Made by a program: the position numbers and the translations under genes. 64,000 bases of DNA from an uncultured Actinomycetes bacterium (GTDB taxonomy: Bacteria; Actinomycetota; UBA4738; HRBIN12): assembly GCA_963786805.1 (NCBI GenBank), contig CAWBAK010000004.1, forward strand, positions 101,388 through 165,387. Direction: 5' to 3'. This document shows, piece after piece, positions 33,761 through 55,322 of this stretch. The number at the start of each line of letters is the position of its first letter. The first letter of the stretch is position 1. The notes under the pieces are model-generated. The model saw only the letters and a list, made by a program, of their open reading frames with translations. It was not told the origin of the DNA and made no database searches.

Positions 33761-33836
33761 GCGCCGGTAGCTCAGTGGACAGAGCGGCTGCCTTCTAAGC
33801 AGCGGGTCGGAGGTTCGAGTCCTCCCCGGCGCACCA
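33761..33836 (+). tRNA. tRNA-Arg (anticodon TCT), 76 nt with the CCA end encoded
   Basis: GCGCCGGTAGCTCAGTGGACAGAGCGGCTGCCTTCTAAGCAGCGGGTCGGAGGTTCGAGTCCTCCCCGGCGCACCA. The acceptor stem is GCGCCGG/CCGGCGC, the anticodon loop is CTTCTAA and the T-loop is TTCGAGT. Confidence 0.85.
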
Positions 33837-33877: not shown

Positions 33878-34747
33878 ATGACCTATGAGATCAACAACGG
33901 ATGGATCATCGGTGAGCTTCCGGGACCGAACAGGTCGCTCGTCCCGGTGAAGCACTTCCCACAGGGACCATACGAACGGAGACTGCGGAAGAACCCGCTG
34001 CTCTGTCTCCACACGACTGAGACGGACGGCTACGTGGAGAACCTTCGCTTCCCGAGCGAATTCCAGGTCGGCGAGGAGCTCATCGGCCAACATCGGCCGC
34101 TGTGGGCAAGAGGCTCGGCGGTGGACGAACATGACCATGATCTCCTCCAGATCGAGATCGTTGAGTTCTCGAGGCTCGATCCGTGGCTGCCGAAGCCGTC
34201 GAGCCTCAACCCACTGGTCGCGCTCATGGCCCTCCTCCATCGTCGTGGCTTCGTCGCAAGGTCACTGCAGCGCCCCGACCGGTGGCCCGTTCGACTCGAT
34301 CGACTTCCAGCAGCTGTGGACACGTACTACCGTCGCCACGAGGTCTGGGACGATCCGAATGTGTACGGTCACGTCGAGATTCCCGGCGACGAGCACTGGG
34401 ACCCCGGTTCGCTCGACCATCCGGCTCTGTTCTCGATGGTCCGCGACGTTCTCGCTCCGAAGGAGGTCGATGGAGAGGTGATCACCGACAACCAGCTCGA
34501 AGGGATCCAGTTCGCGAACGGGATGCGGCGGTACCTCGACAGCCCGGAGAACGAGCCTGCGGAGCCGGGACCAAACCGCCAGGGATTCCGGTTCGCGCGG
34601 CGGATCACGACGCACATCGATGGTGAGACGCCGGTGACGGGATTCGAGCCGACGAGATCATCGACGGAGGGCATGAACCTGTCGTCCGAAGAGAAGCACG
34701 CGGGACCAGAAGAGGAGGAGGCCGAGCGCCGCAGGCTCGGGGAGTAA
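33878..34747 (+). CDS. Hypothetical protein, possibly a PGRP/amidase_2-like N-acetylmuramoyl-L-alanine amidase. It sits in a lower-GC segment directly after tRNA-Arg.
   Basis: LCLHTTETDGY resembles the amidase_2 start (I-H-H-T-A...), and YGHVEIPGDEHWDPG resembles the Zn-ligand region. Local GC is visibly lower (~58-60%) than the surrounding ~70%. The assignment is weak. Confidence 0.35.
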   Translation: MTYEINNGWIIGELPGPNRSLVPVKHFPQGPYERRLRKNPLLCLHTTETDGYVENLRFPSEFQVGEELIGQHRPLWARGSAVDEHDHDLLQIEIVEFSRLDPWLPKPSSLNPLVALMALLHRRGFVARSLQRPDRWPVRLDRLPAAVDTYYRRHEVWDDPNVYGHVEIPGDEHWDPGSLDHPALFSMVRDVLAPKEVDGEVITDNQLEGIQFANGMRRYLDSPENEPAEPGPNRQGFRFARRITTHIDGETPVTGFEPTRSSTEGMNLSSEEKHAGPEEEEAERRRLGE

Positions 34748-34935
34748 CCAGGCGGGCTGCTTACCGTCGTGATCACTCAGATGAGAACTTCCCGCACAGC
34801 GCTCGTCGGGTGGATAACCATCCGACTTGTTCCTGTGCTTGGGGCTTCGACCACGACATCGGTGGTTGCGACACCCTTCCTCCTCCGGCGGACGCCCGGT
34901 TGCGGGGTCGGTCCCGTCCAGAGAAGGATGCGAGG

Positions 34936-36273
34936 GTGGAGACCCCGGAGACGCGCTATTCGAGAAGCGCAGACGGCATCCATATCGCGTACCAGGTGCT
35001 CGGTGATGGCGATCTCGATCTCGTCGTCTCGCCGGGATACGTGTCGCACCTGGAGCACTCGTGGGAAGACCCGCAGATGGCTCGGTTCCTTCGACGGCTG
35101 GCCTCGTTCAGCCGCCTGATCGTCTTCGACAAGAGAGGGACAGGGATGTCGGATCGCCCGGCCAACGAGGATGCTCCGCTGCTCGAGGACCGGGTCAACG
35201 ACATCGCCACCTTGATGGACACGGTGGGGTCGGAACGGGCCGCGATGATGGGCCTCTCGGAGACCGGCGCGGTGGCCCTCCTGTTCGCTGCAACGTACCC
35301 GGAAAGAACAAGCGCGGTCGTGGCCTACGGCACGTTCGCCGGCGGGGGTAACACGGCTCCGACCTACCCATGGGCGCCCGATCCAGGGCAGGCCGAATGG
35401 CTCGAGGACATCGAGCGGCACTGGGGCCGTGGCGTGCTCTTCCTGGATGAATTCGCCGGTTCCTTGCAGGATGACACTCACTACCGGGAGTGGTTCGCCA
35501 AGCTCGAGCGACTCTCGGCCAGCCCGGGCGCCGCCGTGGCGATCGCACGGATGGTGATGCAGATGGACGTGCGCGACGTCCTGCCCACGATCCGCGTCCC
35601 GACGCTGGTGTTGCATAAGCGCGACGACCAGGCCGTTCCTTTCGAGGAAGGGAAGTACATCGCGGACCACATCCCGGGTGCGAAGTTCGTCGAGCTCCCG
35701 GGGTCCGACCACTGGCCGTGGATCGGACACGAGGAAGCCGTCGAGGAGATCCAGGAGTTCCTCACGGGGATGCGCGATAGCGCCGAGTCGAGCCGAGCGG
35801 TGACGACGGTCATGTTCGTCGACATCGTCGATTCGACCAAGCGCGCCGCAGAGCTCGGAGACCGGCGATGGGTCGGCCTGCTCGAGCGCTTCTACGCGGT
35901 CGTCCGGCGAGAGCTGGACCGATCTCGTGGGCGAGAGATCGATACGGCCGGTGACGGATTCTTCGTGACGTTCGACGGTCCTGCTCGAGCCATACGATCT
36001 GCGACCGCGCTCGTCGACAGGGTCGAGGAGCTCGGGCTCCCGATCCGTATCGGCATCCACACCGGAGAGTGCGAACGGATGGCGGACAAGGTCGGTGGTC
36101 TCGGGGTCGTCATCGGAGCACGGGTCGGCGCGCTGGCGGGGCCTGGAGAGATCCTGGTGTCACGGACCGTGCAGGACCTCGTCGTCGGCTCGGGGTTGAC
36201 CTTCGAGGACGCCGGCGAGCACGAGCTGAAAGGCGTCCCCGACCGCTGGCACCTGTATCGAGTGGTGAAGTAG
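34936..36273 (+). CDS. Alpha/beta-hydrolase fold domain fused to a class III adenylyl/guanylyl cyclase catalytic domain
   Basis: Hydrolase core (LVVSPGYVSHLE, GLSETG nucleophile elbow, a His near the C-terminus of the domain). Cyclase domain: TVMFVDIVDSTKRAAELGD...DTAGDGFFVTF...IGIHTGE. The start is ambiguous between GTG 34936 and the table's 34810. Confidence 0.7.
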   Translation: METPETRYSRSADGIHIAYQVLGDGDLDLVVSPGYVSHLEHSWEDPQMARFLRRLASFSRLIVFDKRGTGMSDRPANEDAPLLEDRVNDIATLMDTVGSERAAMMGLSETGAVALLFAATYPERTSAVVAYGTFAGGGNTAPTYPWAPDPGQAEWLEDIERHWGRGVLFLDEFAGSLQDDTHYREWFAKLERLSASPGAAVAIARMVMQMDVRDVLPTIRVPTLVLHKRDDQAVPFEEGKYIADHIPGAKFVELPGSDHWPWIGHEEAVEEIQEFLTGMRDSAESSRAVTTVMFVDIVDSTKRAAELGDRRWVGLLERFYAVVRRELDRSRGREIDTAGDGFFVTFDGPARAIRSATALVDRVEELGLPIRIGIHTGECERMADKVGGLGVVIGARVGALAGPGEILVSRTVQDLVVGSGLTFEDAGEHELKGVPDRWHLYRVVK

Positions 36274-36361
36274 GTCTTTGTTCGGAACGAGGCTAGCGAC
36301 CAAGCTGCAGTTTCATACGCTTCAAGGCTTCCTCACCAGACGGCGATGAAGCGAGCGCTTC

Positions 36362-36730
36362 TCATGAGAGAGGAGCGAGCACGCAGAACTCGTTCCCCTC
36401 TGGATCCGCCATGACGACCCACGACACGTCCTCGGATTGGCCGATGTCGGCGCGACTGGCTCCGAGCTTGATCAACCGGCGAACCTGAGCCTCCTGGTCG
36501 GCGGGCCTGAGGTCGAAGTGCAGACGGTTCTTCACCGTCTTGCGATCGGGAACCTTGACGAACAGGATGTCCGGGGCGACATCGACCTCCGGGCTTCCTT
36601 CCGGCGGTTCGACACACCACTCGGTCGCGCTCTCATACGTGATCCGCCATCCGAGCGCCTGTGACCAGAAGCGCGCGAGGCGTTCACAGTCGTCGGCGTC
36701 GACCACCACGCATTGGATCCGGATGTCCAC
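36362..36730 (-). CDS. VOC-family (glyoxalase/bleomycin-resistance fold) protein
   Basis: 122 aa with a typical VOC pattern (DADDCERLARFWSQALGW...NRLHFDL...DPEGNEFCV). Confidence 0.65.
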   Translation of the reverse strand: MDIRIQCVVVDADDCERLARFWSQALGWRITYESATEWCVEPPEGSPEVDVAPDILFVKVPDRKTVKNRLHFDLRPADQEAQVRRLIKLGASRADIGQSEDVSWVVMADPEGNEFCVLAPLS

Positions 36731-36748
36731 GCGTGAACCGTATCAGCG

Positions 36749-36916
36749 CTACCTGCCGCGTCTGCGGAGCATCAGCACCACGACGATGACGATGATGATG
36801 ACCACGACGAGCGAACCTCCAGTCAAGAGGTTGTCGTTGCCGCCGTTGCCTTCGTCTTCACATGCCGCCAGGAGCGCCGCGGCGAGCGCGAGCGGTGCGA
36901 ATACCTTCGCCTTCAT
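36749..36916 (-). CDS. Small ORF (55 aa): a lipoprotein-type signal peptide with a lipobox (LLAAC), an acidic Gly/Asn-rich segment, then a C-terminal Val/Ile-rich TM helix with an RRRGR tail
   Basis: Manual translation gives MKAKVFAPLALAAALLAACEDEGNGGNDNLLTGGSLVVVIIIVIVVVLMLRRRGR. A strong SD (gagggaggcaacc) precedes the ATG. The ORF is below the size cutoff of the ORF table. Confidence 0.45.
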   Translation of the reverse strand: MKAKVFAPLALAAALLAACEDEGNGGNDNLLTGGSLVVVIIIVIVVVLMLRRRGR

Positions 36917-37005
36917 GGTTGCCTCCCTCTAGTGAGAGCAACTCATACCCGCCTGCGGGCCGTTTCAGGCGTCGAGCCCACCGATTCAAGAGGGAGATGT
37001 AGAGA

Positions 37006-37037
37006 GCCCCGTGACGGCGAACCGCCACGGGGCTCCT
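37006..37037. other. Perfect 10-bp inverted repeat (gagccccgtg...cacggggctc) with a 12-nt loop, in the intergenic space between two small minus-strand ORFs
   Basis: Read directly from the sequence. It is a possible terminator or regulatory hairpin. Confidence 0.3.
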
Positions 37038-37054
37038 GCTGGGGAGCCCTTCCT

Positions 37055-37354
37055 TCACGAGGAAGCAGGGAAACTCAGCGGTCGAACGCTACTCCGACGA
37101 GTCCGGTACGTCGAATCGGCCGGTGCTAGGCCATGTTCGGGGCGAGCGGCATGGGCGGCGGCCGCAGCATCGCGCGAGCTGACCACGCTCCGCGCACGGT
37201 TCAGGGATGCGCTGGTCTCTCTTCCTCCTTCGGGAGGTGGCGGTCGGGGCTCGACGAACCACAGCTCGACGGAGCGAACGGAGTCCGGGTTCTTGTGCAG
37301 GAGGAACCCGAGATCCGTCGCCGGGACGTGCGTCGTGCTGATCGTGAGGAGCAT
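37055..37354 (-). CDS. Hypothetical short ORF (99 aa). The first ~45 aa look protein-like and the rest is low-complexity, so it may be a gene remnant.
   Basis: MLLTISTTHVPATDLGFLLHKNPDSVRSVELWFVEP..., with no recognisable family. Confidence 0.2.
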   Translation of the reverse strand: MLLTISTTHVPATDLGFLLHKNPDSVRSVELWFVEPRPPPPEGGRETSASLNRARSVVSSRDAAAAAHAARPEHGLAPADSTYRTRRSSVRPLSFPASS

Positions 37355-37628
37355 CAGACCTTCCCGCTGCCGTAAGTCACCGAGTATCCCAAGCGCCCGA
37401 TGCTCGAGATGAGAGGAAACTCACCGGTGCGAGCTCGCTCGTTCAGACGGGCACGAGACCGGCGAGCTCACCCCAGGTCCGTGTCCGGTTATGTGCTCTG
37501 AAGCGTATCGACGCGGCTCCCCCGTTGCTCCGTGCTGCAACCAAAAGGAATGCTTCTTCAAGCATGCGGAGGTCGCTGCGGGGGTAACGACTTACGTGGA
37601 TCTCCGCATCAGGGGAAGGGAGACAGCG

Positions 37629-38489
37629 ATGCCACCTCGGCTCCGTTCGAGCATCTCTCGGATCATCGGCTGCACGATCGCCCTGCTCGTCGTCGTCGTG
37701 CCGCTTCAAGCCCTGGCGGACGAGCCGTTGATCGGAGGGGCTGAAGCGGCCCTGCCCACTGCCGGAGTCGTCACCGAGGTCGTCGAAACCGTGGAAGTGA
37801 TCGAGGAGGTCGAGCCGCCGGCAGAGGTCGTCGAGGAAGTCGAGCCGGTGGCAGAGGTCGCCGCCGAGGTTGAGCAGACGGCCGGAGGAGCGGTGGAGAG
37901 CGTCGGCGATGCGGCGGCCGAGGTGGTCAACGAGGCTCCGACCGTCGAGGAGGCCCAAGGAGCGGCCGGCAACGCCTCGGGGCAGGTCCAGGGAAACGCC
38001 GGCGCGGTGGTGAACAACGCATCCGCGAGCGGCGGATCGGCCGCGGATGCGACCGCCGGATCGGGCGGATCGGCGGACACCGGAGCTTCTCCCGGGGCCG
38101 GCAAGCACGCGGAACATGGCGCCCAGCCGACGGATGAGCGGATCACGGTCGCGTCGACGGGATCGACATGGCGACGGACGCATTTCGCCCGACTGGGTGT
38201 GGTCGTGCCCGCCGCTTCGTTCCTGTACCAGCCGTTGACGCTTCAAGGGAGCCCGGCCGATGAGCCCGAAGTCGACCCATGCGAAGACGATCCGGGGCTG
38301 GCGTGTCTGGGTCTCCTGTTCGGCATCGGCGAGTTCGCCGAGGCCGGCGGTGACGTCCTCGGTCTCTTCCTCGCCGCGACTGGCGTCGTTCTGCGTGGCC
38401 TGATCGTCCTCGCATTCGCCCTGCTGCTCGCCGGAGTCGTCGCTCTTTCGATCGCGCCGAGGCGCGCGACGCCTCGCGGGACGGGCTGA
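37629..38489 (+). CDS. Secreted acidic low-complexity protein with EV-rich repeats (EVVEEVEP) and a C-terminal TM anchor
   Basis: Signal peptide MPPRLRSSISRIIGCTIALLVVVVPLQALA, then VVTEVVETVEVIEEVEPPAEVVEEVEPVAEVAAEVEQ..., then a C-terminal hydrophobic stretch. The RBS is gggaagggag. Confidence 0.55.
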   Translation: MPPRLRSSISRIIGCTIALLVVVVPLQALADEPLIGGAEAALPTAGVVTEVVETVEVIEEVEPPAEVVEEVEPVAEVAAEVEQTAGGAVESVGDAAAEVVNEAPTVEEAQGAAGNASGQVQGNAGAVVNNASASGGSAADATAGSGGSADTGASPGAGKHAEHGAQPTDERITVASTGSTWRRTHFARLGVVVPAASFLYQPLTLQGSPADEPEVDPCEDDPGLACLGLLFGIGEFAEAGGDVLGLFLAATGVVLRGLIVLAFALLLAGVVALSIAPRRATPRGTG

Positions 38490-38502
38490 CCCTGGAGCCG
38501 GG

Positions 38503-39135
38503 TTGGCGAACGCCGGTCAGAACGCCTCGGCGAGGCGCCGGTCTCATCCGGCTCGAGATTGGCTGGGCGACCCCTACCGCGATCGCGCGCACTGGTACTT
38601 CCTCGTCTGCTTGATCGTCACCGCGACGTTGCTCTTCGTTGCGGAGCGCAACGATCGGCCTTCCGGCTCTACGGATGAGGCGCCGGGCGCAGGATCACTC
38701 GCGCGCGGGCTCGTCGAGTATGAGAACCGGACGGGGGGATATCGGTTCATCTACCCCCAGACCTGGGATCTGCGAAACGACGGTCGCTTCACGCAAGTCA
38801 CGAGCCCGGATGGAACGATCGACCTTTCGTTCCAACCGCGTCCGAACGGTACACAGGGGCTCTCTGCAAGCCCGCTGCTTCGGCCCTCCGACCCCGAACA
38901 CTCTCACGAGCGCCTGATCGGATCGCGATGGGAGCTGATCGGAGGCTCGCTCTCGCTCCTCGTCGGCGGCACCGCGACCGACACATCCGGTCGCCGGGTG
39001 CGTTTCCTCCAGATCTCGGTGGGCGCCGAGCCGCGGGACTACTCCATCACCATCGTCGTGCCGTTCAAGTCCGATCCCGAAGAGGTCCTCCCTCTGGTCG
39101 AGGAGATCGTCTCTACCTTCGACACCATCGAGTAG
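38503..39135 (+). CDS. Hypothetical membrane-anchored protein
   Basis: A TM helix (HWYFLVCLIVTATLLFVA) is followed by a soluble domain. The start is a TTG or GTG and is uncertain. Confidence 0.4.
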   Translation: MANAGQNASARRRSHPARDWLGDPYRDRAHWYFLVCLIVTATLLFVAERNDRPSGSTDEAPGAGSLARGLVEYENRTGGYRFIYPQTWDLRNDGRFTQVTSPDGTIDLSFQPRPNGTQGLSASPLLRPSDPEHSHERLIGSRWELIGGSLSLLVGGTATDTSGRRVRFLQISVGAEPRDYSITIVVPFKSDPEEVLPLVEEIVSTFDTIE

Positions 39136-51250: not shown

Positions 51251-51285
51251 GGGCGCAGTCTAGAGCCTGCCGCGAACGGCCGCGG

Positions 51286-52699
51286 CTACGCGGACGCGAT
51301 CCGCTCGCCCAGCTCCGCGGCGATCTCGACGAGGGCGAGCACGTCCTCCTCGGTCGTTCGGAAGTTCACGAAGCACGGCCGCAGGTAGACCTCGTCGTCG
51401 ATCAGCGCGCTCGCGATCCACACGCGGCCGTCCGCCTGCAGCATGTCCGCAAGACGCTGGTTGTGCGCGTTCAGGTCGGTGACGCCGGGCGGGACGTGGC
51501 GGAACGGGACGATCGACAGCACCGGCTCGGCCGAGCGCTTCGAAGTCCGGCCGGGCCTCGACCGTCTCCCACAGCAGGTGCGCCTCGCGCAGGTTGCGCT
51601 CGATCGCCTCGCCGAACGCCCGCGCGCCGTGCGCCCGCATCGCGAGCCAGAACTTGAGCGCGCGGAACGGGCGCGAGTACTCGAACGTGATGTCGACGGC
51701 ATGCAGCTCGTGACGCTGGTGCGGCAGGTACCCCTGCTCGTGCGCGAAGGACGCGGCGAGGTCCTCCTGGTTCCGAACCAACACCACGCCGCACGCCTTC
51801 GGCAGGTACAGCCACTTGTGCGCGTCCACCGAGACCGAGCGCGCGCGCTCGAAACCGCGGAAGAGCTCGGGGCGGACCGCCGCGGCCGGGATCCCGTACG
51901 CGCCGTCGACGTGCATCCAAACCCCGCGCTCCTCGCAGATGTCGGCGATCGCCTCGAGCGGGTCGATCGCTCCCGTCAGCGTGGTCCCGGCCGTCGCGAC
52001 CACCGCCACCGGCGTGATGCCCTCGGCGCGATCGCGGTCGATGGCCTCGGCGAGCAACTCGGGCACGAGTCCCCGGTCCGGCCCGAGCGGGATCGCTCGG
52101 AGGTGGCGGGAACCGATCCCCAGCATCTCGATGGCGCGCGTGATCGAGTAATGGACCTCCTCGGAGCAGTACACGGCCGGTCGCGCGCCCTCCAGCCCGT
52201 CGAGCCGGCTTCCGGGCAGCGCGTGCTCGCGCGCCGCCGCGAGGGCGGAGGTGTTCGAGATCGTCCCGCCGCTCGTGAACGCGCCGGCGCAGGTAGCCGG
52301 GTATCCCACGAACTCGGCCGCCCAGCGCACGGCCTGCCGCTCGATCTCGGTCGCGGCGCCCGCGTCGACCGCGAGGTTGATGTCGTACGTGTGCGCGAGG
52401 AGATCGCCGATCGCGCCGATCTCGAGGCCGCTCGAGCCGATGAACGCGAAGTACCGCGGCCGAGGCTGCGCGATCGACTCGTCGAGGATCCGCGCGGTGT
52501 CGTCGAGCGCCTCGTGGACGGGAGCGGGATCGTGCGGGAGCCCGGCGCGGAGCAGCGCGCGCACGCGCTCGTCGAGCTGGGGTTCCTCGGGACGGAAACG
52601 GTCGAACGAACGCCACGCCTCGGTGACGAGCTTGACGGCGTGCTCGAGCGCCTCCTCGCGCGACGCGTCGAGCCGGAGCGGCCGTTCCAGGTCGGTCAC
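51286..52699 (-). CDS. PLP-dependent group II amino-acid decarboxylase, with an apparent frameshift near 51530
   Basis: The motif SVDAHKWLYLPKACG contains the PLP-binding Lys. The C-terminal 60 aa are in ORF 51286..51702. Confidence 0.6.
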
Positions 52700-52840
52700 A
52701 CCGCCGATGCTACCTTCGGCAACTCGCCGAGCGCCGCGCGTTCCCCCCGCTTCTCACACATGACGCGATCCGTACCTACGGATCGGCGGCGAACCACGTT
52801 TGCCGCGCGATCCCCGCGTACGATTCGATCGATGGCCGAC

Positions 52841-53030
52841 GATGCGATCCTCGAAGAGCTTCGGCTCGTCGATCGATTCGGCTCGGGAGCAGTTCGCGGC
52901 CGACCCCGGAGAAGAAACAGCCGATCGGCTGGCGCGAGGGGTCGCACAGAGCCTGTCGTCCGAGGCGAGAGAGCAAGCCACCTACTTCGCGGTCCGTCGG
53001 TGGCTCCTGGAGGGTCGCGCGATCGGCTAG
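52841..53030 (+). CDS. Small conserved hypothetical protein (~63 aa), paralogous to the gene at 54303..54494. It carries a 1-nt frame change near 52880.
   Basis: MADDAILEELRLV is in frame 1. The frame of ORF 52800..53030 then reads IDSAREQFAADPGEETADRLARGVAQSLSSEAREQATYFAVRRWLLEGRAIG. This aligns along its whole length with MTDDAIQDELRLAIDEARQQLADEPGTADRLAQQIVESLSPAAKERAAYHAIRRWLLEGRPVG. Confidence 0.45.
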
Positions 53031-54178
53031 CCCGATGGGCCCCACAGCCGATCTGCCACGTCCGCGACGAGCTCGAGCTTGCGCCATTGCGTCTCCTCGT
53101 CGATCTCGTTGCCGACCATCACGCTCGCGAACCCGCATTGCGGGCTGATCGCGAAGCGCTCCATGTCGCCGCCGAGGAATGACGCCGCATGTTCCATCCG
53201 CCGCAGCAGCTCGTCCCCGTCCTCGAGCACCGGGGTCTTCGTCGACACGATGCCCATGACCATGACGGCGCCTTCGCGCAGGAACCGCACGGGCTCGAAG
53301 CCGCCGTCCCGCCCGAGGTCGTCCCACTCGACGAGGAACGCGTCGTACGGCAACTGACCGAAGACGCGATCGGCGACGTGATCGAGCGAGCCTTCACACA
53401 TCCACGACGAGCGGTAGTTCCCGCGGCAGATGTGGAGCGCGACCGTCACGTCGTCCGGTATGTCCTCCAGAACGGCGATGTCCGCGGCGATAGCGGAGTC
53501 CAGCAGCGTGTCGACGTCGTGACCGTGATCCTCGAACCGCGCGACCCACGCCGGGTCGACCAGGTATGGGTAGAGCGGGAAGTCGAACTGGATCTGTGTA
53601 GACCCCGCTTTGATCGCGTCCGCGACGAGGCCGCGCTCGATCTCGATCGCGTGGGCGACGAACTCCTCGAGAGAGCTGTATCCGGAGGTGACGCCCGGCT
53701 TGAAGGAGAACGGGTGACCGAAGATGGACGGTGCGGGGAAGGTCACCTTGAAGGGGTGACCGCCGGCCACCTCGGCCATGAAGGCGGCCTCCCGGGTTGC
53801 CGGCGAGTCGACCGGCTTCAGGCGATCCACGATCTCGTGGACCGCGAGCGGCATGTCCTCGCCGTCCGCGTTGCGGAAATGCACCACGTTGTCCGTGCGG
53901 AACCCCTCGACCGCGTCGTAGAAGGAGTTGAGGAACATCCACCGCCGGAACTCCCCATCGGTCACGACGTCGAGGCCGATGTCGATCTGTCGCTGCACCG
54001 CGTCGCGGATCGCGTCGTCCTCGATGTGGGTCAGCGAGCTCCGGTCCTTCGCACGCTCCTCGTTCAGGACGGCAGAGTGGCCCTCCTCGTAGAAGGCCTC
54101 GACCGCCCGACGGAGCGTGGGCGGGCGAAGGAGTGAGCCGACGACCTCGGCGCGTGCGGGACGTCGTGGAGGGATCAC
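53027..54178 (-). CDS. Cobalamin-independent methionine synthase (MetE) C-terminal-domain-like protein (UROD/MetE fold)
   Basis: VVGSLLRPPTL...GLDVVTDGEFRR...HICRGN.... The start is probably GTG 54178, but this is uncertain. Confidence 0.6.
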   Translation of the reverse strand: MIPPRRPARAEVVGSLLRPPTLRRAVEAFYEEGHSAVLNEERAKDRSSLTHIEDDAIRDAVQRQIDIGLDVVTDGEFRRWMFLNSFYDAVEGFRTDNVVHFRNADGEDMPLAVHEIVDRLKPVDSPATREAAFMAEVAGGHPFKVTFPAPSIFGHPFSFKPGVTSGYSSLEEFVAHAIEIERGLVADAIKAGSTQIQFDFPLYPYLVDPAWVARFEDHGHDVDTLLDSAIAADIAVLEDIPDDVTVALHICRGNYRSSWMCEGSLDHVADRVFGQLPYDAFLVEWDDLGRDGGFEPVRFLREGAVMVMGIVSTKTPVLEDGDELLRRMEHAASFLGGDMERFAISPQCGFASVMVGNEIDEETQWRKLELVADVADRLWGPSG

Positions 54179-54302
54179 GCGCGGCAGACTACCGCCGTCA
54201 TCACGCCGGCGAAGGAACCCGATCGACGGGGCGGGATCGCGAGATCCTTGAGAACGCGGTCTGCATCGTGAGCGAGCAGTCGCCAGGGACTGCCCCGAGT
54301 CG

Positions 54303-54494
54303 CTATCCGACCGGACGGCCCTCCAAGAGCCACCTTCGGATCGCGTGGTAGGCGGCTCTCTCCTTCGCCGCAGGCGACAGGCTCTCGACGATCTGTTGCG
54401 CAAGCCGGTCCGCGGTTCCGGGTTCATCCGCGAGCTGCTGCCGAGCTTCATCGATCGCGAGCCGAAGTTCATCCTGGATGGCGTCGTCGGTCAT
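54303..54494 (-). CDS. Small conserved hypothetical protein (63 aa), paralogous to the gene at 52841..53030
   Basis: MTDDAIQDELRLAIDEARQQLADEPGTADRLAQQIVESLSPAAKERAAYHAIRRWLLEGRPVG. The frame is intact. Confidence 0.5.
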   Translation of the reverse strand: MTDDAIQDELRLAIDEARQQLADEPGTADRLAQQIVESLSPAAKERAAYHAIRRWLLEGRPVG

Positions 54495-54641
54495 CGACCG
54501 AAGCGTACGCGGAGAGTGGTTGCTCATTCGCCAAACTATGGCTACGAATGATGTCGTCTGTGAGAAGTGCGGGGACCGAGCGCTCCGCGAGAGCAAGGCT
54601 TTCCAGGCGGTACTGCGTCACCAAACCGGCGGCCGGACCCG

Positions 54642-55322
54642 TCAGCTCGGCTGCGCTGGATCGGTGAACCGTGCCGGCTTGTGGCTGCCGTCACAGAACG
54701 GCTTGTTCTGCGAGTGCCCGCACCGACAGAGTGTCTGTCGGTTGCGCACCTCGTACGGCGCACCGTCCTCCGAGACGATCGGGATGCCGCCGCGCACCCA
54801 GTACGACGCGTTCGGTTCGACGCCGATCGACGGCTCGAGCGCCGGCTCCACCGTCGTGCCCGGATCGACGGACTCCGCATACGTCAGCCGCCCTGACGGA
54901 CAGCGGTGGACCATCGCCACGAATTGCGCGCGCGCATCCTCGTCGTCGGCGTCGCCCGCGAGCTCCCAGACATCGGTCCGCCGGTTCCTGCAGAAGCCGG
55001 CTGTCGTGCAGAGCGAGCCATCGTCGTACAGGATGACGCCGTTCCCCTCCCATGGTGAACGGCGCGCCGCCGTGGGCCCACGGTCGGCGGTCTCTGCGCC
55101 TACGAACGAGATGCGTTCGCACGCGTGGTCGCAGAATGGCTTCTCTGCCGATTCGCCGCACCGACACAGCTCGTAGCTCTCGGCCACGGCGAAGTCCGGT
55201 CCTTCGTCCCAGTCGATGGGCTCGCCTTGCTCGGTCTTGACGATCGCCGTTCGAAGCAGGCGAACACCGCCCTCGACTCGGTAGGGACCCTTCCCCACGA
55301 CGACGATCCTCATCCGCGACAC
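54642..55322 (-). CDS. Protein with two CDGSH-type iron-sulfur domains
   Basis: CRCGESAEKPFCDHAC and CRCGHSQNKPFCDGSH. Confidence 0.7.
   Translation of the reverse strand: MSRMRIVVVGKGPYRVEGGVRLLRTAIVKTEQGEPIDWDEGPDFAVAESYELCRCGESAEKPFCDHACERISFVGAETADRGPTAARRSPWEGNGVILYDDGSLCTTAGFCRNRRTDVWELAGDADDEDARAQFVAMVHRCPSGRLTYAESVDPGTTVEPALEPSIGVEPNASYWVRGGIPIVSEDGAPYEVRNRQTLCRCGHSQNKPFCDGSHKPARFTDPAQPS

Follow-up and report, generated by a model that had tools for sequence, protein, structure and literature searches.

A small-protein gene with a putative promoter of its own, duplicated on either side of a MetE-like gene in an uncultured actinobacterium

Two diverged copies of a small gene lie in opposite orientations around a single MetE-like gene in the DNA of an uncultured Actinomycetes bacterium (contig CAWBAK010000004.1), raising the question of whether the pair serves the gene that it brackets, marks a segment that could be flipped, or is simply where two copies came to rest. 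A preliminary description of the 64,000-nucleotide stretch analyzed here (the window) had suggested that the small proteins could be a dedicated regulator or chaperone family or, alternatively, that the arrangement could mark a former invertible or duplicated cassette. We favor, with a probability of roughly 0.65, the reading that the locus holds a paralogous, lineage-restricted accessory small-protein gene in the form of a self-contained promoter-plus-ORF module, that the inverted geometry is incidental, and that a frame error in one copy (copy A) is an artifact.

The two homologous small ORFs are both present (Table 1), and their similarity, which might have been spurious, stands up to shuffle tests. 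The proteins are identical at 41 of 65 positions (63%), with a local alignment score of 202 against 26 +/- 5 for 5000 shuffles (z=34), and the DNA units score 170 against 18.7 +/- 2.3 for shuffles (z=66). Within the coding sequences, identity is 143/195 (73%), copy B being 6 nt shorter than copy A through an in-frame indel. As had been described, copy B lies intact upstream of the MetE-like gene on the same strand, its end 124 nt from the MetE-like GTG start codon (54178), and copy A is convergent with the MetE-like gene, the two stop codons overlapping by 4 nt in ctag (53027..53030). The end of copy A was likewise placed correctly, but its start is the ATG at 52832 and not position 52841. The inverted repeat that brackets the MetE-like gene also proved to be real but longer than the ~190 bp reported, at ~290 bp (range, about 280-297 bp) once the ~100 bp upstream of the ATG is included; its arms are 73-75% identical, and the longest exact run common to both is 11 nt. 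This upstream ~100 bp is similar between the copies in its own right (z=8.1; 1 of 5000 shuffles as high), whereas the similarity ends at the stop codon and the outer flanks align at chance level (far upstream z=0.2, downstream z=2.1). A candidate extension, in which copy B would also carry the start of the decarboxylase gene, was rejected on that far-upstream value. By these alignments, a self-contained 0.3-kb module of promoter and gene has genuinely been duplicated as copies A and B. The "duplicated cassette" of the preliminary description is in this respect borne out, since the whole promoter-plus-ORF unit is repeated and each copy is a discrete ~0.3-kb indel when the window is compared with a contig of about 90% identity.

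Table 1. Positions of the features discussed, numbered from the first letter of the window (designations beginning with L are loci compared with it)
Feature	Position	Strand	Details
PLP-dependent decarboxylase gene	51260..52699	minus	Pfam PF00282, E=2.5e-57
Decarboxylase promoter-like site, TAGCAT-N7-GTG	52707..52712	minus	TAGCAT-N7-start kept in L012, L025, L026, L030, L032
Module copy A	52735..53031	plus	~97 bp upstream region plus small ORF, from inverted-repeat arms and alignments; 5' boundary uncertain by about +/-15 nt
TACGAT -10-like hexamer, copy A	52819..52824	plus	7 nt before ATG
Small ORF A	52832..53030	plus	65 aa after removal of the extra T at 52869: MADDAILEELRLAIDSAREQFAADPGEETADRLARGVAQSLSSEAREQATYFAVRRWLLEGRAIG
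Extra T breaking the copy A frame	52869	plus	Context CTCGTCGATCG; from alignment
MetE-like gene (Meth_synt_2 / PRK06520-like, 383 aa)	53027..54178	minus	PF01717, NF005085
MetE-like promoter-like site, TAGTCT-N7-GTG	54186..54191	minus	Identical in L076
Module copy B	54302..54582	minus	Upstream region plus small ORF; between the CDGSH stop (54642) and the MetE-like promoter
Small ORF B	54303..54494	minus	Intact, 63 aa: MTDDAIQDELRLAIDEARQQLADEPGTADRLAQQIVESLSPAAKERAAYHAIRRWLLEGRPVG
TACGCT -10-like hexamer, copy B	54502..54507	minus	7 nt before ATG

The frame of copy A is indeed broken by one nucleotide, through an extra T that falls just outside the interval (52870-52890) put forward earlier for resequencing. 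At this point the alignment shows CTCG-CGATCG in copy B and in each of the nine orthologous contigs, so that the extra T is found in the window only. Relative to L012, a contig with about 90% identity to the window, purE (51105) and the decarboxylase gene (a 1-nt insertion, 51533) are likewise interrupted by single-base indels, and another breaks an LLM-type oxidoreductase gene at about 58853, all three within 8 kb. Because of these similar lesions nearby, the shifted frame of copy A most likely stems from assembly or sequencing; it could be a genuine pseudogenizing mutation, and the extra T does lie outside any homopolymer. Gene calls in this assembly, including that of the housekeeping gene purE, should therefore not be taken as pseudogenes before the reads have been checked.

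Several measures bear on whether the small ORF encodes a protein. For copies A and B compared with each other, the dN/dS ratio is 0.38 (dS 0.57), and comparisons of either window copy with the A-type orthologs give 0.17-0.64; variable columns number 24, 19 and 41 of 73 at the first, second and third codon positions, an enrichment at the third; and the small gene of L009 is longer by 24 nt, again an in-frame indel. Because dN/dS values of 0.2-0.6, in-frame indels and third-position variation coincide, the small ORF is, in terms of its pattern of substitution, a real coding gene under purifying selection. GC3 is 0.75-0.76 in both copies versus 0.83-0.93 in the neighboring genes, which hints at a foreign or young origin. 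Rfam gave no match in the region, and the whole window contains only two tRNAs. A terminator-like hairpin lies antisense inside copy A (52918-52931); such hairpins numbered 2 against 0.8 +/- 1.0 expected by chance, and we do not regard it as a real signal.

An AlphaFold2 model of small protein B consists of three helices (mean pLDDT 86) and is all-helical from residue 2. The predicted protein is soluble, cysteine-free, acidic (pI 4.5-4.75, about 4.6) and hydrophilic, without a transmembrane segment (GRAVY -0.15 to -0.55; top 19-residue hydropathy <=0.35), and it carries an invariant basic amphipathic C-terminal helix, RRWLLEGR. It has no match in Pfam, NCBIfam, PHROGs, PADLOC or the PDB, the Pfam and NCBIfam searches finding no HTH, RHH or chaperone family at E<=0.05, and a Foldseek search of the model against the PDB returned nothing with E<1. 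The N-terminal beta-strand followed by two helices that defines an RHH protein is absent from the model; a noncanonical HTH is conceivable. Two resemblances, of the C terminus to Arc/RHH proteins (EGRIGA versus EGRAIG) and of ESLS to the acyl-carrier "DSL" motif, were dropped because neither the profile searches nor the predicted fold supported them. Most plausibly, the small protein would not be a catalyst but would work by binding a partner, be it a protein or a nucleic acid.

Upstream of the small gene, a -10-like hexamer (TACGAT in copy A and TACGCT in copy B) is invariant as TACGNT at a fixed distance of 7 nt from the start codon in 11/11 aligned sequences, while the spacer varies, and the window has two occurrences of the motif CCGCGTACGNTTCGNTCGATG, where 0.1 would be expected. 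Neither a Shine-Dalgarno sequence nor a conserved -35 element was found upstream of the copy A ATG. The same TAnnnT-N7-start geometry recurs at the decarboxylase and MetE-like genes. In Mycobacterium, TANNNT -10 elements are centered 7-12 bp upstream of the transcription start site, and the small gene shows the corresponding sequence signature of a leaderless gene, TANNNT ~7-12 bp before the start and no Shine-Dalgarno sequence (PMC3898074). Given this lack of a Shine-Dalgarno sequence and the hexamer 7 nt before the ATG, we infer a leaderless-type promoter at copy A. Other elements of the upstream region did not hold up. The "CTTCTCACA" block was considered as a special site, but the upstream identity between A and B (58/96) equals the synonymous-site expectation (pS 0.40), so that no extra constraint can be claimed for it, and the motif is not enriched in the window. 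Upstream of copy A there is also a palindrome, CGATCCGTA-CC-TACGGATCG (52765..52784), that is perfect in the window and semiconserved in the orthologs, 79% of cells pairing across orthologs versus 15-43% in slid controls. As an RNA hairpin or operator it was rejected, because there are no compensatory changes and shuffles match what is observed; copy B has no counterpart upstream.

The gene between the two copies contains a Meth_synt_2 domain (PF01717, E=1.4e-9, 38 bits against a cutoff of 21). Its match to NCBIfam NF005085 (E=8e-71, 239 bits) falls below the curated 313-bit cutoff, and for this reason we call it MetE-like rather than assigning it as MetE. The decarboxylase gene is co-oriented with it and divergent from copy A, which thus lies antisense between two co-oriented genes and has a divergent promoter region of 132 nt in common with the decarboxylase gene. 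In the genome loci, the order is SDR <- P450 -> MetE-like -> decarboxylase -> purE, and in many of them the P450 and MetE-like genes, and the MetE-like and decarboxylase genes, adjoin directly. Between the P450 and MetE-like genes, the window has a strain-specific insert of 2.2 kb that carries cupin, DinB and CDGSH genes as well as copy B.

The distribution of the family is narrow. It comprises 7 clusters among 5.8 billion; a search of 1.8 billion representatives gave one 50% cluster and one distant relative, P0011, three further matches being discarded as coiled-coil false positives. A scan of GTDB species representatives yielded no confirmed member, viral contigs, phages and plasmids yielded none, and a metagenome scan found again only L001. 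The small genes known are confined to one narrow group of uncultured soil-type actinobacteria. All 12 contigs with a close homolog (12/12) show it at the copy A site, in strains that share about 90% identity with the window, and the orthologs are 74-86% identical to small ORF A. Each copy is nonetheless missing from one close relative. At site A, the window has 299 nt (52719..53017) where L012 has 13 nt and no copy A; at site B, it has 414 nt (54215..54628) where L076, likewise about 90% identical to the window, has 88 nt and no copy B, the indel boundaries being fuzzy by +/-15-40 nt. Because each copy is absent from such a close contig, both are, on this comparison, dispensable indels of ~0.3 kb. 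In trees, L012 falls inside the A-bearing clade (decarboxylase) or basal to it (MetE-like 3'), and its junction is also compatible with a deletion in which both edges were kept. A and B have diverged further at synonymous sites (dS 0.57) than window copy A has from its orthologs (0.19-0.35), and yet a close relative lacks B, a combination that implies either an old duplication followed by loss or the acquisition of an already diverged copy.

On our preferred explanation, the unit of travel would be the ~0.3-kb module, made up of a promoter with a -10 element only, a start codon 7 nt beyond it (the leaderless arrangement suggested above) and an ORF of 63-65 codons. The ancestral row, as seen in relatives, would have been a tight P450 -> MetE-like -> decarboxylase -> purE series; copy A would have been inserted antisense at the MetE-like/decarboxylase junction within a narrow clade, and copy B lies in the 2.2-kb strain-specific insert. 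The inverted-repeat geometry would then be a by-product of the landing sites of the two copies and not a functional switch.

The main alternative close to the earlier proposal is that the small protein serves the P450, MetE-like and decarboxylase operon specifically, as its regulator or accessory partner; it might, for example, be an autoregulatory DNA-binding protein that acts at the shared promoter region, or help the MetE-like enzyme as an assembly or chaperone partner. We consider this unlikely. Homologs do adjoin the MetE-like gene, a point that the preliminary description had proposed to check, but the adjacency does not amount to functional linkage: because every homolog is an ortholog occupying a single site, in strains that are about 90% identical, the linkage is, judged across these loci, synteny by descent, and at the 60 genome loci whose MetE-like genes are orthologous (48-90% identical), no relative of the small protein is encoded (0/60). 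Both copies lie next to the MetE-like gene, and the 132-nt divergent region that copy A has in common with the decarboxylase gene contains the palindrome, perfect in the window and semiconserved elsewhere; the palindrome, however, lacks covariation and is missing upstream of copy B. The invariant basic C-terminal helix would suit a binding function, but matches to HTH, RHH or chaperone families or folds are lacking. Moreover, L012 and L076 retain the MetE-like gene and intact MetE-like and decarboxylase promoters without the respective module, the small gene persists in L001 where the MetE-like gene has been replaced, and P0011 has sigma factor and pilin-like genes around it, an unrelated setting. 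The same observations weigh against the regulator or chaperone role first suggested. Very improbable is a further reading, that the conserved unit is a cis-regulatory or RNA element whose ORF is incidental in GC-rich DNA. A GC3 (0.75) below that of the neighbors, a GC3 frame plot that called both regions noncoding, open antisense frames and the antisense hairpin in copy A would all fit it, but dN/dS is below 1 throughout, variation is enriched at third positions, indels are in frame, the start, stop and fixed-spacing -10 box are conserved, the helical model is confident, Rfam has no match, and the count of terminator-like hairpins is at chance.

Two further readings involve recombination. One holds that the 0.3-kb unit is a tiny mobile cassette, inserted by an unknown kind of recombination into intergenic junctions near leaderless promoters, with A and B as independent insertions, and we think it improbable. 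Homology between A and B begins and ends (about 52735-53031 and 54302-54582) at roughly the same points as the indels relative to L012 and L076, which would not be required of an arbitrary segmental duplication; both copies are polymorphic for presence among strains ~90% identical, their GC3 is below that of host genes, and they have diverged from each other (dS 0.57) further than window copy A has from its strain-level orthologs. These points have to be set against several others. Terminal inverted and direct repeats are at chance level (the end-versus-end alignment being reached by 46% of shuffles for A and 81% for B), and as a candidate target-site duplication there is just a 3-nt CTA/TAG at both edges of copy A, accounted for by the stop codon of the MetE-like gene and the -10 box of the decarboxylase gene. 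Pfam revealed no domain of a transposase, integrase or recombinase in the scanned ORFs (~34-63 kb), just two sites are known, the 12 other close-homolog contigs all having the copy at the same A site, phage, plasmid and viral collections lack copies, the indel boundaries are fuzzy, and the L012 junction is readable as a deletion, the decarboxylase tree nesting L012 within the A-bearing clade. More doubtful again is the bolder form of this idea, in which the unit would be a new miniature mobile module, without transposase, terminal repeats or attC, inserting beside leaderless promoters in Gaiellales-like actinobacteria, whose small protein might aid its spread or retention. The other reading, that the pair is a present or recent invertible switch in which the MetE-like gene is turned around when the inverted repeats recombine, is scarcely credible, and the "former invertible cassette" of the preliminary description fares no better. 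Arms of ~290 bp inverted around a 1.15-kb gene have the right geometry, but they are only 73-75% identical, and an 11-nt exact run is too short for RecA-dependent exchange. Invertase and recombinase domains are likewise absent from the ORFs scanned in ~34-63 kb (Pfam), and the MetE-like and decarboxylase genes keep the same relative orientation in every metagenome contig and Gaiellales-type genome locus that shows both. The MetE-like promoter, finally, lies inside the segment that would be flipped, so that inversion would not switch the gene.

On the preferred reading, that of an accessory module with incidental geometry, the case shows an orphan small gene spreading and being lost in a conserved operon of uncultured actinobacteria, and it cautions that a "conserved neighborhood" among near-identical strains is uninformative about function. 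If the module were mobile, it would be a new minimal type of cassette, and the locus would gain in significance if the three-helix protein bound the P450, MetE-like or decarboxylase enzymes or their promoters.

Among known systems, the phase-variation switches fim and hin likewise have inverted repeats around a segment of ~1.2 kb, but there the repeats are short and exact, whereas here they are long and ~25% diverged, no recombinase was found in the scanned ORFs, a single orientation is seen, and the promoter is not the item flipped. MITEs and other small nonautonomous insertion elements share with the module a size of ~0.3 kb, a position at intergenic junctions and indel polymorphism among strains; the module differs in having no terminal inverted repeats, no clear target-site duplication and no high copy number (two copies within 64 kb instead of many dispersed ones) and in carrying an ORF under selection. 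Integron cassettes, too, are small single-ORF units with discrete insertion, but the module ends at its stop codon without an attC, neither IntI nor attI was found nearby, and the module brings a promoter of its own and occurs in opposite orientations. Like small antitoxin and type I toxin loci, the small gene has its own promoter, is duplicated and strain-variable, and overlaps a convergent gene; unlike them, it has no partner toxin gene, neither copy having a partner ORF of the type II kind beside it, it matches no toxin-antitoxin family in Pfam, NCBIfam or PADLOC, and its product is hydrophilic and acidic rather than a hydrophobic membrane peptide. The leaderless small-protein genes of actinobacteria such as M. 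tuberculosis (PMC3898074) are a closer parallel, sharing TAnnnT 7 nt ahead of the ATG and the lack of both a Shine-Dalgarno sequence and a conserved -35, a geometry repeated here at three neighboring genes, although here leaderless expression is a prediction from sequence and the protein family is without a described relative. With strain-variable ORFan genes and local duplications, the small gene has in common a narrow taxonomic range, a low GC3, presence or absence in close strains, and paralogs that have diverged under moderate purifying selection; it stands apart from them in that the unit is unusually small and neatly bounded and its copies are inverted around one gene.

The preliminary description had placed two paired small ORFs around the MetE-like gene, and this arrangement was borne out by an ORF listing over 52500-54900, a repeat finder and alignments compared with shuffled sequences. 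Four collinear inverted-repeat segments (I1-I4; 52735-53031 and 54302-54582) with 70-83% identity were found, and the two copies scored far above shuffles both as DNA units (170 versus 18.7 ± 2.3) and as proteins (202 versus 26 ± 5, with 41 of 65 residues identical). The similarity reaches ~100 nt 5′ of the ATG, the upstream part by itself giving z = 8.1, and stops at the stop codon, with the outer flanks at chance level. With the upstream region included, the repeat is ~290 bp rather than the 190 bp first proposed, and copy A starts at 52832 rather than at 52841. Its stop codon does share 4 nt (ctag, 53027-53030) with that of the convergent MetE-like gene, as had been described, and 124 nt separate copy B from the MetE-like GTG (54178) downstream of it. 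ORF A contains a perfect palindrome of 14 nt, CAGCCGATCGGCTG, at 52918-52931 (codons T-A-D-R-L); flagged at first as a possible terminator hairpin for the MetE-like strand, it was rejected because sites of this type are as numerous as chance predicts.

Features of the small-ORF region, in window coordinates
Feature	Position	Strand	Remarks
Copy A small ORF	ATG 52832, end 53030	plus	frame shifts after codon 12
Copy B small ORF	54303..54494	minus	intact, 63 aa
MetE-like gene		minus	PF01717; NF005085-like, score under the NF005085 cutoff; co-oriented with decarboxylase
PLP decarboxylase		minus	PF00282
TAGCAT-N7-start, decarboxylase	52697-52712		kept in L012, L025, L026, L030, L032
TAGTCT-N7-GTG, MetE-like gene	54176-54191		also in L076
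TAnnnT-N7-start, copy A	52819-52834		
TAnnnT-N7-start, copy B	54492-54507		

The small ORF is a real gene, encoding a tiny, soluble three-helix protein that is under selection. A protein search returned seven clusters of 65-73 aa that are 63-74% identical to copy B, and searching 1.8 billion representatives with a profile contributed P0008 and a sole distant relative, P0011 (profile E value of 2e-4; z = 13.8 against copy B in shuffles). A comparison of A with B gives a dN/dS ratio of 0.38 (dS of 0.57), and comparing either of them with the A-type orthologs gives 0.17-0.64; by codon position, 24/19/41 of 73 columns are variable, and indels keep the reading frame (B is 6 nt shorter, contig L009 24 nt longer). 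An AlphaFold2 model has helices at residues 2-23, 25-38 and 41-58 (mean pLDDT of 86), and the protein is acidic (pI of 4.5-4.75) and hydrophilic, with no cysteine or transmembrane segment and with invariant blocks ELRLAID, TADR, SLS and RRWLLEGR. No match to it was found in Pfam, NCBIfam, PHROGs, PADLOC, PDB sequences, Foldseek-PDB or BFVD, nor was there an Rfam match in the small-ORF region. The small protein, we infer, works through binding to a partner. P0011 itself (70 aa, with 44% identity across 54 aa; L072 1492-1704) comes from a different organism, where it lies downstream of genes for a primary sigma factor and a prepilin-type N-methyl-domain protein, a context not shared with the window.

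The 1-nt frame error reported in copy A proved to be a single extra T at 52869, missing from copy B and from 9 of 9 orthologous contigs in the alignment. Relative to L012, the closest MAG, purE (51105) and the decarboxylase (51533) each carry a disruptive 1-nt insertion as well, both genes being intact in L012, and an LLM-type (luciferase-like) oxidoreductase changes frame at ~58853. Because four genes are broken within 8 kb, including housekeeping purE, the frame errors are quite probably an assembly artefact. Since the assembly seems prone to indels, genes in the window that look like pseudogenes should be treated with suspicion.

Copy A lies antisense between the MetE-like gene and the decarboxylase. 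All 12 contigs with a close homolog, which are 84-91% identical to the window, carry it at this same site, in the order decarboxylase, a gap of ~95-130 nt, small ORF and, overlapping it by 4 nt, the MetE-like gene, except that in L001/L002 the MetE-like gene is replaced 43 nt past the small ORF stop. (In this one strain the replacement, at L001 1519-2300, is a SecDF_P1_head-domain lipoprotein-like gene, and the first ~43 nt of the MetE-like 3′ end are left as a scar.) The linkage is therefore synteny by descent: homologs do adjoin the MetE-like gene outside L001/L002, but this adjacency does not stand as a functional link. MetE-like orthologs (48-90% identical) occur at 60 genome loci of uncultured Actinomycetota, Gaiellales and Thermoleophilia among them, and no relative of the small protein is encoded at any of these. 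The ancestral row in these loci is SDR, divergent from P450, MetE-like, decarboxylase and purE, with junctions that often abut; in the window, cupin, DinB, CDGSH and copy B separate the P450 from the MetE-like gene. The two junctions flanking the MetE-like gene are insertion hotspots across L013-L071: they abut in many MAGs, and in others 0.4-3 kb of unrelated cargo is present, for instance a P-type ATPase, an EamA-type permease with a glutamine amidotransferase (both in L014, 2757-5001 and 6137-7724) or a small cupin-fold-like ORF. The independent assemblies L003, L005 and L012 all end within one ~25-bp stretch in the 5′ part of the MetE-like gene (window ~54079-54103), which suggests that strain-level heterogeneity upstream fragments the assembly graph.

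Both sites also occur empty. L012, ~90% identical to the window, has 13 nt in place of 299 nt (52719-53017) at site A; its MetE-like gene lacks the usual stop and runs ~16 extra codons to a TAG within the decarboxylase TAGCAT −10 box (L012 1020-1125). At site B, L076 (89% identical) reads DinB, CDGSH, 88 nt and MetE-like where the window has 414 nt (54215-54628), and it retains the MetE-like promoter without copy B. Each copy is therefore a dispensable ~0.3-kb indel (net 286 and 326 nt), roughly equal in extent to the A/B homology unit. Because trees differ in where they place L012, the indels may be either insertions or deletions; a deletion keeping both edges is one possible reading of the L012 junction.

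Of the origins proposed earlier, a duplicated cassette is upheld, the repeat being a whole promoter-plus-ORF module and each copy a discrete ~0.3-kb indel. A former invertible cassette is not: the ORFs scanned (~34-63 kb) yielded no recombinase or transposase domain, the longest exact run common to A and B is 11 nt, and the MetE-like gene was seen in a single orientation, so that an invertible switch is very unlikely. The unit might instead be a novel mini-cassette, a minority possibility to which several observations lend weight: its homology and indel limits coincide, the GC3 of the copies is lower (0.75 versus 0.83-0.93), and A and B have diverged from each other more than copy A has from its orthologs. 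Terminal inverted or direct repeats of A and B were not above chance, and viral, phage and plasmid collections held no relatives. Elsewhere in the window, tRNA-Arg(tct) (33761-33836) precedes ~5 kb (33900-39100) with GC3 <0.8 containing unannotated ORFs, an alpha/beta-hydrolase-adenylate-cyclase fusion and a glyoxalase-like gene; this may be a tRNA-associated genomic islet, and no integrase was found among the ORFs scanned. As to function, a role in the flanking operon, such as that of a dedicated MetE-like partner, is a slim possibility; no test run favours it, and homolog linkage reflects descent. The feature is thus a duplicated, strain-variable orphan small gene, real but of an ordinary kind, and neither a switch nor a demonstrated MetE-like partner.

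The small ORFs lack a Shine-Dalgarno sequence. A TACGAT/TACGCT hexamer stands exactly 7 nt 5′ of the ATG in 11 of 11 aligned sequences, with a variable spacer, and the 21-nt motif CCGCGTACGNTTCGNTCGATG occurs at the two copies only, against 0.1 expected. Leaderless expression of the small ORFs would fit this layout. Between the divergent copy A and decarboxylase promoters lies a palindrome, CGATCCGTA-CC-TACGGATCG (52765-52784), perfect in the window and semi-conserved (imperfect) in orthologs; it shows no covariation, and the region 5′ of copy B has nothing equivalent. The TAnnnT-N7-start geometry, without a Shine-Dalgarno sequence, is shared by four adjacent genes, namely the two small ORFs, the decarboxylase and the MetE-like gene, which suggests that leaderless expression is widespread in this Gaiellales-like lineage. 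The local geometry fits that of Mycobacterium, in which the centre of a TANNNT −10 element lies 7-12 bp 5′ of the TSS and leaderless transcripts occur (PMC3898074).
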